A stretch of 64,000 bases of DNA from a virus. Taxonomy: Duplodnaviria > Caudoviricetes. The notes under the pieces were generated by a model, which was not told the DNA's origin, searched no databases, and saw only the letters and a program-made list of their open reading frames with translations. Positions 58,034 to 62,537 of this stretch are shown here, one piece after another. Within the stretch, counting starts at the first letter, position 1; each line of letters opens with the position of its first letter. The position numbers and the translations under genes were made by a program. Location of the stretch: positions 160,001 to 224,000 of IMG/VR virus record IMGVR_UViG_2974670102_000001, one strand, 5' to 3'.

Positions 58034-58210
58034 ATGAAATACTTCTGGATTGCGGTTGTCGCGTTTCTCGTCTGCGACGCCTACCTGTACACTGAGAACG
58101 GTGAGTCGTATTTCTGGGGCAACCAACACCGTATCGAACGCCTTTTCAAACACGTGGCTCTCAGCCTCGGCACCTATCACGGTCAACAGGAGGACCAAGA
58201 CGATGAATAA
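58034..58210 (+). CDS. Small membrane-anchored protein (58 aa, not in the ORF track)
   Basis: GGAGG SD; MKYFWIAVVAFLVCDAYLY... Confidence 0.6.
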   Translation: MKYFWIAVVAFLVCDAYLYTENGESYFWGNQHRIERLFKHVALSLGTYHGQQEDQDDE

Positions 58211-59237
58211 ATACGCAGCGGAGTTCTTCGGCAAGTTTCACTACGCGATCACGGTCGGCTACGACAGGGCCGAGGGCGGCCCGTTCCAGTTCAACGATGG
58301 CATTTGCGAGAACTTCAGCGTGTACCTGCGTCGCGCTGGCGTCCCGGGCATCATCAAGGATGCGTATATGCGCGCGCTCGCCGACGCCTTCCAGTTCAAC
58401 GGACAGGGCCGCGTGTTCCCGTTCAATACGGGTCGCATGGCCGAGTACAGTGAGGAAGTGCTCACGAACACGGTCTACAAGAACGAGGAACGCAAGACGT
58501 TCCTGCGCAACATGGTCAACGACTACGATCTGGTCGAACACCGAGTGGTCACCAACCTGCTGGACCAGTATTTCCGTGAACTGGAACTTTGGCTGAACGG
58601 TAGCCTCGATGGGCAACGCCGGTTCCGGAACCACACCGGCATCTGCACGAACGTCGAGCACTGGCTCAAGTCCCATGGTGTGGACGATTTCGCACTCACC
58701 TGTAACATGCGGAACCAGTTGACCCAAGAGTTCCAGATTGCGATGGGTGCTCGTGACGAAGGGGTGTACGATGGCTACCCGTTCAACGCCAACGTCGGCC
58801 ACTACCTGAATGAAGCTCAAGCATGCACGACCTACGGCAACGCAAAGCGCGTAGCCTACATCCGTCGCCGGGCCGCACGTGCTTATCTGAACACGAGCAC
58901 CGTCGACTCGTTTCTGACCGAATTCCGTCACTGGTTCCGGGCGGCCCTTCCCGCCGACAACACGTTCTCGTCTGCGGCTGCTGTCTGTTCGAACCTGACA
59001 CGGTGGATGCGCAGCACCGGGGCAGACGACTTCGCGTGCACGTGGGCACAGAAGAACCTCATGGAAAAATTCGTGCGCATGGGGCTTCACGCGCGATTCC
59101 CGTTCAACGAGCGCGCGATGGAATACGCAGACGAGCGTGACGCCGGAACGTTTTACAAAAACCCCAAGCGCTGTGCTTGGATCGAAAAGATGGGAATCAT
59201 TTCGCATGAAGAACTCTGCAAGCAGTTCGGGGACTAA
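58203..59237 (+). CDS. Repeat-family A protein (three units)
   Basis: AGGAGG SD; GICEN/GICTN/AVCSN...PFN...Y.N..R x3. Confidence 0.75.
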   Translation: MNKYAAEFFGKFHYAITVGYDRAEGGPFQFNDGICENFSVYLRRAGVPGIIKDAYMRALADAFQFNGQGRVFPFNTGRMAEYSEEVLTNTVYKNEERKTFLRNMVNDYDLVEHRVVTNLLDQYFRELELWLNGSLDGQRRFRNHTGICTNVEHWLKSHGVDDFALTCNMRNQLTQEFQIAMGARDEGVYDGYPFNANVGHYLNEAQACTTYGNAKRVAYIRRRAARAYLNTSTVDSFLTEFRHWFRAALPADNTFSSAAAVCSNLTRWMRSTGADDFACTWAQKNLMEKFVRMGLHARFPFNERAMEYADERDAGTFYKNPKRCAWIEKMGIISHEELCKQFGD

Positions 59238-59373
59238 GATTGACGACCCGAAGATCGAGATCGTACGCCAGTGCATCGAGCGTGCGGTCGTCGAGGCCGC
59301 TAATGGCGGTGACCTGTGGCTCACGACTTTCTTGGCCGCCGAGAAAATCGTGGACATGGTAAAGAGTAGTTGA
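59206..59373 (+). CDS. Small hypothetical protein
   Basis: Fills the gap; start uncertain. Confidence 0.45.
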   Translation: MKNSASSSGTKIDDPKIEIVRQCIERAVVEAANGGDLWLTTFLAAEKIVDMVKSS

Positions 59374-59403
59374 CGTAACGTCAGGGCCACTATATAGTGG
59401 CCC
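59370..59403 (+). promoter_or_regulatory. Sigma70-type promoter TTGACG-17-TATAGT with a perfect 20-bp palindrome over the -10 box
   Basis: GGGCCACTATATAGTGGCCC at 59384-59403. Confidence 0.8.
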
Positions 59404-59428: not shown

Positions 59429-59635
59429 ATGAACAACGTAGCGTCCCGCATTCTCGGCATCCTGAGCACCGAACTCGATCTCGAACCCGAGCACCTGAGT
59501 GTCGACCATTCGTTCCACTTTTCGGAATTCGAAACCGCACTGGACGACGAGTTCGATCTTCTGTCGGGTGCCGTCGTCTACGAATTCATGTCCGTGCGGG
59601 ACATGGCATCGCGCATCGAGCGAGTTCTGGCGTGA
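59429..59635 (+). CDS. Acyl carrier protein-like protein lacking the DSL motif
   Basis: RILGIL..EL......L....SF-[gap]-EF..AL.DEFD......SV.D....I collinear with AcpP. Confidence 0.65.
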   Translation: MNNVASRILGILSTELDLEPEHLSVDHSFHFSEFETALDDEFDLLSGAVVYEFMSVRDMASRIERVLA

Positions 59636-59952
59636 AGCTCAGTCCGCTACAGCGCAAGATTATGGTGCTGGTGCGTGACGCGTTTGTTACCTACTACAGC
59701 CACACCCAGCTTTTCATTTGTAACGAGGTGAAGACGGCCGCGCACGCGCTCAATCGATCAGTGGACGATTCGTCCGTGAACGACTTGCTGTGGGCTATTC
59801 GTGAAGCACTCGGAGGCCGTAATACGCTGGGTGATTGGCTCATGTGGGAGTATGACCCTGCTGTCTATCTGACGGGCACAGAGCGAAATCGTATCCTCAA
59901 CCTGTGTCGAGAAGCTTGGCTCGACGCTATTCTCGAACGGGGTGAAATTTGA
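59632..59952 (+). CDS. Repeat-family B protein 1
   Basis: L...Q.KI...V...FIC.....I..AL.G..TL..WL....R.AWL..I..RG.I. Confidence 0.7.
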   Translation: MKLSPLQRKIMVLVRDAFVTYYSHTQLFICNEVKTAAHALNRSVDDSSVNDLLWAIREALGGRNTLGDWLMWEYDPAVYLTGTERNRILNLCREAWLDAILERGEI

Positions 59953-60329
59953 AAGACGATGACGAGTACTTCAGCGCGAAAGAACTGGAAATCCTGAATC
60001 TGGTGCTGGAGCGGTTGGAACACGCGGCAGAGACCCCGGTGGATGGTGCCCATCAGTACCTGTGCCTGCACATCGGCAGCGTCGGGCGCGAACTCAGCTA
60101 CTCCAAAAAGCGCTATTTCTTCCATCGCCTATTCGGGCTCGACACCACGTACACGAAGGCGGCGCAAGCCCTGATCGAACAGATCGCACAAGCACTCGAC
60201 GGCAAGAGCGGCAACACGCTTCAGGGTTGGGTGAGTCTGCGCACTGGCTACATACCGTACGCAGATGTCATGAACGCGGCGCGTGATGCGTGGCTTCGTC
60301 GTGCACTCGAAATCGGGTATTTCGGATGA
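59949..60329 (+). CDS. Repeat-family B protein 2
   Basis: QYLC...IAQALDG...TLQGWV...ARDAWL. Confidence 0.7.
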   Translation: MKDDDEYFSAKELEILNLVLERLEHAAETPVDGAHQYLCLHIGSVGRELSYSKKRYFFHRLFGLDTTYTKAAQALIEQIAQALDGKSGNTLQGWVSLRTGYIPYADVMNAARDAWLRRALEIGYFG

Positions 60330-60667
60330 GCACCGCACTGAATGCACGCCAGATGGAGATCATGGTGTTTGTGTGCGCTGCCCTCAACTACCGTGATTCG
60401 GCCTATCCGCAGTACATCTGCCAAGCTGTGAAAGACGCGGCATGTGATCTGGACGCCTGTGTCTGGTACGGGTTCTTGCGCCCATACCGCAGTCAGGTCA
60501 ATTCGATCCTGCGCATGATCGATCAGGCATTGGATTGTCGGACGTTGGAGCGTTGGCTCGCGGGCAAGGTTTCGTTCAACGGGTTCCCGGCTGACCAGCT
60601 TGGACTTTTCAATCAATGTCGGGCCGGTTGGCTCGAAACCATAATCGCGCGAGGGCGCATCGAATGA
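60326..60667 (+). CDS. Repeat-family B protein 3
   Basis: QYIC...IDQALD..TLERWL...CRAGWL..I..RG.I. Confidence 0.7.
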   Translation: MSTALNARQMEIMVFVCAALNYRDSAYPQYICQAVKDAACDLDACVWYGFLRPYRSQVNSILRMIDQALDCRTLERWLAGKVSFNGFPADQLGLFNQCRAGWLETIIARGRIE

Positions 60668-60879
60668 AGAAATATGTGGGAATTGCACTGATCTTGGGGC
60701 TGATGCTTGCCGCGCTTGCGGCTGTCGCAAACCCGACATCGGTGGTGATCGAAACGCGGTTCGGCTACATCCGCATCTACGACGTGTTGACCCCGGCAGG
60801 TCACCAGTGTACGATTGCGTCCTCCGAAGCGGACAGCAACAGTGCGGGCCGCGCATTGGCCATGCAGTGCTACAAATAA
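60664..60879 (+). CDS. Small secreted protein with two Cys
   Basis: MKK plus hydrophobic signal peptide; mature part with C...C. Confidence 0.6.
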   Translation: MKKYVGIALILGLMLAALAAVANPTSVVIETRFGYIRIYDVLTPAGHQCTIASSEADSNSAGRALAMQCYK

Positions 60880-60887
60880 GGAGAATC

Positions 60888-61139
60888 ATGAAGAAGCTCA
60901 TTCTGGCAGTGGCGTTGGTCGCTGCCCTCACCGGGTGCACGCGCCCGGATCAGGCACGTCGTCTGCTGGCGGCACAGGGCTACACGCAAATCGAGATCAC
61001 GGGCTACGCGCCATGGGCCTGCTCGGAAGACGACACGTTCCACACGGAGTTCCGTGCGGTATCGGCGGCAGGTCATCGGGTACAAGGCGTTGTCTGTTCA
61101 GCCTTGCTCAAAGGCGCAACTATTCGGCTGGAGGATTAA
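60888..61139 (+). CDS. Lipoprotein
   Basis: MKKLILAVALVAALTG-C lipobox; AAGGAG SD. Confidence 0.8.
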   Translation: MKKLILAVALVAALTGCTRPDQARRLLAAQGYTQIEITGYAPWACSEDDTFHTEFRAVSAAGHRVQGVVCSALLKGATIRLED

Positions 61140-61523
61140 ATGCGTGCAACTCATGCAAAGCTTGAAGTAACGGGAGAGCGTAGCGCCCTTATCACTGCCG
61201 ACATCATCGCGCGCTTTATCGGCAGCGAAATTACGTATCTCGCGGACTTGGTGGACGACACGCAACCCCTGCGGGTCGTAAACCTGCGCTTCCGTGGTGA
61301 TCTCGCAGACCTGCATGGTGAAAAGATCATGCTGCCGTTCGCGGATGCAGTTCGCGGCGGCAAGGCTCTCGGGCTGCTCATCAAGCGCATCAACTGCGCG
61401 GCGGCGCAAGTGGGCTATGCAGCACACAGTTTGGTTGATCAGTATGCTGGTGCAACCGTGGACACCGATGCGGAAACCGGGAAGATCGTGGTGACCGTAC
61501 GACTTCAAAGGAGCCGAGCATGA
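61140..61523 (+). CDS. Hypothetical protein
   Basis: GGAGG SD. Confidence 0.6.
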   Translation: MRATHAKLEVTGERSALITADIIARFIGSEITYLADLVDDTQPLRVVNLRFRGDLADLHGEKIMLPFADAVRGGKALGLLIKRINCAAAQVGYAAHSLVDQYAGATVDTDAETGKIVVTVRLQRSRA

Positions 61524-62341
61524 CGCCACGACAACGCGAAAACGCGCAGCACGCAATCAATCAGGGCAATCGCTACCCGCTCGACAGCCTGCAAACCGTC
61601 CACTGGACGCTGGACGCTGCTCGCGGTATCATGCGCGAACTGAACGGCCGTGACTCGTTTGGTGACGCGCCCGACGAGTGCGATCAGGCTGTTCTCGACG
61701 AAATCACGGTAGCGATCCAGAACATCATCCGGGTCGCGCACGCCTCTGTTAGCGAGCACGCGGATCAACCGCCCTCGGCCACCGATGCAGCCATCGCGCT
61801 GGCGCATGAAGCCCAGTCGGCCGTCACCTCGATCTACGCTACGCATTTCGGTATCGGTGACGTGCAGTGGCATGAGGACATCGAGCGCGAAACCGGGCTG
61901 GACGAGAACGACCGTCAGGAATTGCAGGAAGCACTGGAACAGCGTTTCAGCGCCGTGTTCGACGAACGCGAATTCGAGGCGTGCCGCACGGCCAGCGCTC
62001 TCGTCGCCTTTATCGTCAAGAACCTGCTGCCGTTCGAGGGCGACCCGCTGGTGGTTGCCACGCAGACGGCCAAGGATCGTGTGATCGTGGCCCGGGCCCT
62101 CTACAAGCTGCTGAGTGCCGATCTCAACATCCACGAATGCAGCAGCGCCGACCGCCTGTTCGAAGACCTCCAGATCAACAGCGCGGATGCTGGTAACCTG
62201 ATCCGCGATCTGGGTGACGATCTTGGCATCGACATCGCGAGTGTGCTGTTCCAACTCAAGGAGCCTGCTATCGAAGATGTGCTGGAGATCGGAGCCCTCA
62301 AGCTGGAGGCACAGCGTGCACGCAAGGTTGCCCATGGATGA
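61520..62341 (+). CDS. Protein with helical N-domain and two tandem ACP-like domains
   Basis: ETGLDENDRQEL..ALEQRF....D..EFE..RT...LV.FI and RLFEDLQINSAD...L..DL...LGI.I. Confidence 0.7.
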   Translation: MTPRQRENAQHAINQGNRYPLDSLQTVHWTLDAARGIMRELNGRDSFGDAPDECDQAVLDEITVAIQNIIRVAHASVSEHADQPPSATDAAIALAHEAQSAVTSIYATHFGIGDVQWHEDIERETGLDENDRQELQEALEQRFSAVFDEREFEACRTASALVAFIVKNLLPFEGDPLVVATQTAKDRVIVARALYKLLSADLNIHECSSADRLFEDLQINSADAGNLIRDLGDDLGIDIASVLFQLKEPAIEDVLEIGALKLEAQRARKVAHG

Positions 62342-62534
62342 TGTGGACGATTTCATGGACGACGGAGAGCCCGTGGATCGCGATCAGGCACTCGACATCC
62401 TGAACACGGCTAGTGTGTACCTCAGCCGCTACGAGAGCGAGGCTCGGGGTTCGCACGCGGACGACGTTTGGATCGCAAACGGAAATCTGAAGCGGCTTAT
62501 TTCGCAGTTGACAGCAGAGTGGTCGGCAGAGTAA
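62334..62534 (+). CDS. Small hypothetical protein
   Basis: AAGGT SD. Confidence 0.55.
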   Translation: MDDVDDFMDDGEPVDRDQALDILNTASVYLSRYESEARGSHADDVWIANGNLKRLISQLTAEWSAE

Positions 62535-62537
62535 ACT
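62508..62537 (+). promoter_or_regulatory. Sigma70-type promoter TTGACA-18-TAAACT
   Basis: Near-consensus boxes. Confidence 0.6.

Follow-up and report, generated by a model that had tools for sequence, protein, structure and literature searches.

What is the role of phage proteins that resemble acyl carrier proteins (ACPs) but in which the serine that would carry the phosphopantetheine cofactor is replaced, set in an atypical context or possibly deleted? The question is raised by two genes, p68 and p273, in a 64,000-nucleotide stretch of viral DNA (the window), which spans bases 160001-224000 of the 262,653-bp virus record IMGVR_UViG_2974670102_000001 (GC ~58%). The record appears to come from a Sarumanvirus-type Burkholderia jumbo phage: it matches Burkholderia phage BcepSauron, and the orthologs in BcepSaruman agree with this assignment. 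A preliminary description of the window had proposed an early host-takeover system of ACP decoys that cannot be acylated. We find that the ACP likeness of p68 and p273 is real. As to function, we lean towards the view that p68 and the second and third domains of p273 (d2 and d3) are highly diverged, ACP-fold, non-carrier protein-binding modules specific to Sarumanvirus-type Burkholderia jumbo phages; the residues at and around the cofactor site make it likely that they bind other proteins and are not carriers.

The p273 protein matched the Pfam PP-binding family (PF00550) with 30.4 bits (E 4.6e-7, cut-off 20.8), over two stretches, residues 105-165 and 194-250. Scored alone, each domain fell under this cut-off (20.7 bits for d2 and 17.7 bits for d3). 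The d2 domain was also matched by PHROG 5934, annotated as 'acyl carrier protein' (E 9.5e-5), and by mitochondrial ACP chains in the PDB (E 0.0011), and in BLASTP it was 35% identical to Escherichia coli AcpP over 40 ungapped residues (AcpP residues 34-73). NCBIfam ACP models matched d3 (E 0.0017-0.014). Against an ACP profile built from E. coli AcpP and 28 distinct viral AcpP relatives, hhalign gave scores of 23.9 for d2 and 19.2 for d3. In the ESM Atlas, the model of the central part of p273, which corresponds to d2, overlaid PP-binding clusters with template-modelling (TM) scores of 0.65-0.82, normalised by target. The relationship is distant, with p273 scoring 15.2 bits against the AcpP equivalog model TIGR00517, which has a cut-off of 70.45. 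The presence of two ACP-like domains in p273, one with the serine changed to Glu and one with the serine kept, had been read from the sequence in the preliminary description, and the Pfam score and the alignments bear this out.

In alignments with mitochondrial ACPs, AcpP and the ACP profile, the cofactor serine fell on Glu129 of d2 (GLDEND) and on Ser221 of d3 (INSAD). Neither domain has the (D/H)S(L/I) motif found at the N-terminus of helix II: d2 reads D-E-N, and d3 reads N-S-A, a serine in an atypical context. The surroundings of the site also differ. The equivalents of Asp35, Asp38, Glu41 and Glu47 are all kept in d2, and the corresponding residues in d3 are Asn, Asp, Asn and Gly. As aligned, d2 has no serine at the canonical position, and so cannot receive phosphopantetheine there. 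The site in d3 had been described as retained, which holds for the serine itself, but a kept serine need not be a loaded one, because the D35/E41/E47-type residues needed for modification by AcpS are absent. In E. coli ACP the changes D35N and E41A, and the double change E47A/E48A, each leave the protein unmodified by AcpS in vivo (bioRxiv 10.1101/2025.01.28.635281). The d3 domain carries comparable changes naturally, although the E. coli proteins are engineered single or double mutants of a bona fide ACP and d3 is a distant homolog. Both d3 and p68 would be poor candidates for AcpS-type loading.

Comparison of three natural variants of p273 showed that d2 differs at only two positions and that Glu129 is invariant. 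The residue preceding Ser221 is either Asn or Ser, and the N-terminal domain is the most variable part of the protein. The annotated BcepSaruman ortholog (gp347, P0005) is ~90% identical, but is 177 amino acids (aa) long and ends at p273 residue 175, so that d3 is absent. It is shortened even though the 66-aa gene downstream shows no differences between the two phages, and the cause could lie in a frameshift or deletion, or in the gene being split. The p68 protein is identical in BcepSaruman. Overall, p68 is identical and d2 nearly invariant, while the N-terminal domain of p273 and flanking genes have diverged.

This N-terminal domain is not ACP-like. An LDSLQTV motif within it was considered as a third ACP site and ruled out, given the low hhalign score of the domain (Table 1) and the absence of the motif from its homologs. 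These homologs, P0003 and P0004, match p273 residues 7-75 (E ~3e-4), and were the only relatives of p273, both weak, found in an exhaustive phmmer search of 1.84 billion representatives; Pfam searches with them were uninformative. P0004 (135 aa, from a 70-kb Logan contig) carries the domain twice in tandem; p273 and P0003 each have it once, at the N-terminus. Together, the three proteins form a small domain family without a name.

The case for p68 had to be made differently, as it had no sequence match in Pfam, NCBIfam, PHROG or the PDB. Its ESM Atlas model (predicted local distance difference test (pLDDT) 0.81, predicted TM score 0.74) had PP-binding clusters as its nearest structures, with TM scores of 0.75-0.77 over all 68 residues. 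The clusters nearest by language-model features were also ACP-like (0.89), which we use as a lead only. In hhalign, p68 aligned end to end (residues 1-68) with residues 1-78 of the ACP profile, with a single gap of 9 residues at VEDLGADSL, scoring 19.9 in local mode (probability 13%) and 20.5 in global mode. None of 150 shuffled versions of p68 reached the real score (means 10.3 +/- 2.2 local and 3.0 +/- 2.0 global; maxima 16.7 and 9.8), and six proteins or domains from the neighbourhood, of which three are comparably acidic, scored 8-12 with at most 14 aligned columns. When all 2378 open reading frames (ORFs) of the phage were ranked with an ACP hidden Markov model, p68 came fourth, after two further ACP-like proteins described below and p273. 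We consider it very probable that p68 is an ACP-fold protein. For both p68 and d2, the ESM Atlas models, which adjoin PP-binding clusters, point to the ACP-like fold on which the preliminary description depended.

Is the cofactor site of p68 deleted, as had been claimed? Its collinearity with the AcpP helices is supported by hhalign and the shuffles, but the deletion depends on the alignment. Loop I is shorter by 9 residues, and p68 certainly lacks both the conserved Gly-x-Asp loop and the canonical context of DSL; the equivalents of Glu41, Glu47, Glu48 and Glu49 are kept. Placing the gap after Phe29 scored 25.8 bits and placing it after His27 scored 25.2 bits; the latter puts Ser28-Phe29 on Ser36-Leu37. 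Because shifting the 9-residue gap two residues upstream costs only 0.6 bit, the sequence alone is ambiguous, and the site may be either H-S-F at Ser28 or deleted. Ser28 (59510-59512) and Ser32 (59522-59524) both lie at the start of helix II, and Ser32 is within an S-x-x-E capping box where helix II of the model begins.

Beyond these phages, and apart from P0003 and P0004, relatives were not found in the collections searched. Searches with the region, p273, p68 and d2 against 50,697 phage records other than BcepSauron and BcepSaruman gave nothing, or chance matches with E values of 2 or more, tblastn included. In a word-indexed search of 5.8 billion proteins, p273 (against near lengths) and p68 (against near and longer lengths) matched only themselves, and a scan of viral contigs with p273 was negative. 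Among 42 viral AcpP relatives, which were collected through patterns containing DSL, every full-length one retains the serine. In two of the viral sequences (L034 and L043; IMG/VR contigs 3300030361_000004 and 3300037962_000518), an AcpP-like domain with an intact MDSLD is fused to a C-terminal extension of ~310 aa, so that other phages too have an ACP joined to a partner.

The two further ACP-like proteins, ranked first and second in the survey of ORFs, are encoded elsewhere in the genome. One, of 83 aa (genome 69670-69921, minus strand), has DDL in place of DSL and matches TIGR00517 with an E value of 4.9e-5. The other, of 644 aa (genome 250639-252573, minus strand), has several degenerate ACP-like stretches, of which the last keeps the serine. 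Like p68 and p273, they combine an ACP-like helix II with a serine that is replaced or present only in the last domain, but they belong to other transcription units. The four genes resemble one another only marginally in pairwise comparison, with no more than 6 bits between these two and p68 or p273. One genome thus holds four ACP-like genes in which the cofactor site occurs in all its states (Glu, Asp, degenerate Ser and loop deleted). Of the enzymes that load or use ACPs, none was found anywhere in the 262,653-bp genome for the five families searched (phosphopantetheinyl transferase PF01648, ketosynthase PF00109, AMP-binding PF00501, PlsC-type acyltransferase PF01553 and AcpH PF04336). The absence of fatty-acid, polyketide synthase and phosphopantetheinyl transferase genes, noted earlier for the window, extends for these families to the whole genome.

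Both p68 and p273 lie in one tightly coupled unit of nine genes, with stops and starts that overlap or abut, in which p68 is first and ac66 last (Table 1).

Table 1. Features of the nine-gene unit, with positions in the window.
Feature	Position	Strand	Basis and remarks
sigma70-like promoter, TTGACG-17-TATAGT	59370-59398	+	consensus scan, 10/12 matches
p68	59429-59635	+	68 aa; GGAGG 7 nt before ATG; net charge -10
pA, pB, pC, translationally coupled paralogs of a multi-copy phage family	59632-60667	+	BLASTP among phage ORFs; starts overlap preceding stops
71-aa protein with signal-peptide-like N-terminus	60664-60879	+	read from translation; predicted exported
83-aa lipoprotein with LTGC lipobox	60888-61139	+	read from translation; predicted exported
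p127	61140-61523	+	127 aa; stop overlaps start of p273 (ATGA), for which it is a candidate phage partner
p273	61520-62341	+	273 aa; net charge -24; N-terminal domain, d2 and d3
p273 N-terminal domain, residues 1-90	61520-61789	+	not ACP-like; hhalign to ACP profile 11.6
p273 d2, residues 91-175	61790-62044	+	ACP-like; Glu129 (61904-61906) at cofactor serine
p273 d3, residues 176-273	62045-62341	+	weaker ACP-like; Ser221 (62180-62182) kept, motif INSAD
ac66, last gene of unit	62334-62534	+	66 aa; net charge -11; overlaps p273 stop by 8 nt

The preliminary description had placed p68 first behind a strong promoter and p273 in the same unit. At the level of consensus matches both statements hold: a plus-strand terminator-like hairpin was not found between 59400 and 62508, and the next strong promoter-like site after that of p68 is at 62508-62537. 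In the promoter scan the region had 10 sites, nine of them on the plus strand, compared to 4.9 +/- 2.4 in shuffled sequence. A perfect 20-bp palindrome, GGGCCACTATATAGTGGCCC (59384-59403), has the p68 promoter's -10 box at its centre and occurs once in the genome. Its role could be that of an operator, or it could form a hairpin in the RNA at the transcript's 5' end.

pA, pB and pC share a C-terminal AWL...RG motif with their family, which has at least five further ORFs in the genome's opposite arm (genome 237991-262626, minus strand). pC has a weak match to PHROG 8421, and no BcepSaruman orthologs of pA or pB were present in their 90%-identity clusters. The signal-peptide protein and the lipoprotein in the middle of the unit had no family match, and recall early superinfection-exclusion genes. 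p127 had no match in Pfam or PHROG, and is conserved in BcepSaruman as gp346 (~90% identity). ac66 is not ACP-like by hhalign. Pfam searches with eight neighbouring proteins of the window were uninformative. Just upstream of the p68 promoter lies a gene for a 345-aa protein (58200-59237) that has three internal repeats with an FPFN...Y.N motif and matches PHROG 2510, a family of unknown function, with an E value of 2.4e-42.

How might such proteins work? We propose that canonical carrier function has been lost in all three ACP-like domains: in d2 because Glu replaces the serine, in d3 because the acidic determinants needed by AcpS-type transferases are missing, and in p68 because the conserved DLGAD loop is gone. 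With carrier function lost, p68 and p273 would, on the most economical reading, work instead as protein-binding modules. They would be made from a promoter of the type used by host RNA polymerase, within a unit whose products are small and for the most part acidic or exported. Their acidic helix II, which is the docking surface of ACPs, would attach to a basic patch of the partner, with no acyl group passed on. Host enzymes with ACP-docking sites would be the foremost specific class of target, competitively inhibited in the way that PlsB is by apo-ACP. By this analogy such targets are conceivable but rather doubtful, and it is no less likely that the partner is p127 or another phage protein, or a different protein altogether.

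Several points weigh against the proposal of non-carrier binding modules. AlphaFold single-sequence models (pLDDT 42 and 64) were too poor for use, and a Foldseek search with the p68 model found no match; the fold evidence therefore comes from the ESM Atlas models. The conservation of helix II is in part an effect of ascertainment, as it is through this helix that sequence methods recognise any relative of ACP. The whole region encodes small acidic proteins, so acidity need not mean ACP mimicry. The timing, which may be early, is read from sigma70-like consensus matches, and a binding role for p68 and p273 is predicted from sequence features. Finally, in both multi-domain ACP-like proteins, p273 and the 644-aa protein, it is the last domain that bears the serine, which hints at a real carrier role.

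This last point would be explained if the proteins were genuine carriers, with Ser221 of d3 and Ser28 or Ser32 of p68 loaded by a host Sfp-type transferase and the domains without serine acting as spacers. A promiscuous enzyme of this kind could load any of these residues, all of which lie at or near the N-terminus of helix II, and Sfp still loads D35N ACP in vitro (bioRxiv 10.1101/2025.01.28.635281). The related phages RSL1 and BCSR5, moreover, have ACPs with a canonical DSL. We nevertheless regard carriers as very improbable, as the five families searched yielded no enzyme to load or use them, d3 is absent from the annotated BcepSaruman ortholog, the residue before Ser221 varies, and the NSA and HSF motifs lack the conserved Gly-x-Asp context. 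The negative charge of p68 and p273 (Table 1) would suit generic acidic early proteins, such as nucleic-acid mimics or anti-defence binders, in which the ACP fold is an inherited scaffold and the targets are unrelated to those of ACPs. Neighbouring ac66, g95 and g128 are just as acidic without being ACP-like, and the unit also holds predicted exported proteins of the kind typical of early exclusion functions. However, PADLOC found no defence system, similarity to known anti-defence or defence families was not seen, and the ACP-type pattern of helix II is specifically kept in d2. This explanation also seems very unlikely to us.

A narrower version of binding was proposed in the preliminary description: that mimics without serine titrate the ACP-dependent proteins of the host (in lipid synthesis, lipid A synthesis, N-acyl-homoserine lactone (AHL) synthase, SpoT and complexes of the structural maintenance of chromosomes (SMC) type) in an early takeover. 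Such host decoys would fit a domain in which Glu replaces the serine while the docking residues of helix II are kept nearly invariant, a phage with at least four ACP-like genes and no ACP-client enzyme among the families searched, and a position behind a sigma70-like promoter. The identity to AcpP, at ~25-35%, is nevertheless confined to helix II, and an equivalog score of 15 bits for a cut-off of 70 makes it doubtful that the full surface is mimicked. A simple competitor would also not be expected to come in tandem or fused form, and any host partner is hypothetical. Of the partners suggested, MukB is a poor one, as MukBEF is, to our knowledge, confined to some Gammaproteobacteria and not expected in Burkholderia. 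SpoT is a poor one as well, having been reported not to bind apo-ACP (PMC3896788). The same work provides the precedent in favour, since apo-ACP strongly inhibits the glycerol-3-phosphate acyltransferase PlsB and stops growth (PMC3896788). By analogy with this precedent host decoys are plausible, although we consider them the less probable form of what non-carrier binding modules might be. The broader proposal, that p68, d2 and d3 bind proteins without acting as carriers, leaves the choice between host and phage partners free.

What would follow if the proteins do bind in this way? ACP is among the most connected and most abundant bacterial proteins. In its strongest form, which we think unlikely, the idea would be that Sarumanvirus phages deploy at least four genes (~9 domains) of ACP mimics that cannot be loaded and that dock on PlsB/PlsX, LpxA/LpxD, Fab enzymes and AHL synthase, some of them made at once from host-type promoters, so that membrane-lipid and signal synthesis are shut down or redirected. 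If true, such a battery would be a host-takeover strategy that has not been described for any phage. Repeated conversion of the ACP fold by phages into binding modules without a carrier role, if it has occurred, would amount to a new class of phage effectors and would open new routes to the inhibition of lipid metabolism. The phage is in either case a compact test case for the repurposing of the ACP fold.

How do these proteins compare with known ACPs? One paper describes ACPs as rare in phages, and one was detected in virions of an Erwinia jumbo phage; a full-text literature search found no description of phage ACPs without the serine. The phage-borne PP-binding proteins that are known (PHROG 5934, ORF083 of Ralstonia phage RSL1 and the ACP of Burkholderia phage BCSR5) resemble p68 and p273 in being carried by phages, and RSL1 is reported to be, after the phages of Sarumanvirus, the nearest relative. 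Unlike p68 and p273, the ACPs of RSL1 and BCSR5 have an intact GGDSL or GADSL and share 45-60% identity with AcpP. The RSL1 gene (GGDSLD; L048, 42124-42387) lies directly after a gene for an RtcB-type tRNA ligase. With AcpP itself (E. coli b1094, apo form), the phage proteins share an acidic helical domain of ~70-80 residues, collinear helices I-IV and the acidic pattern of helix II. They differ from it in lacking the canonical DSL (d2 has Glu and d3 has NSA, and in the alignment with the later gap the loop of p68 is deleted), in scoring far under the equivalog cut-off, in having no fab genes around them and, for p273, in being a three-domain fusion with an unrelated N-terminal domain. What is new in p68 and p273, then, is a degenerate, serine-altered variant of a known fold family, with a role that is probably not that of a carrier.

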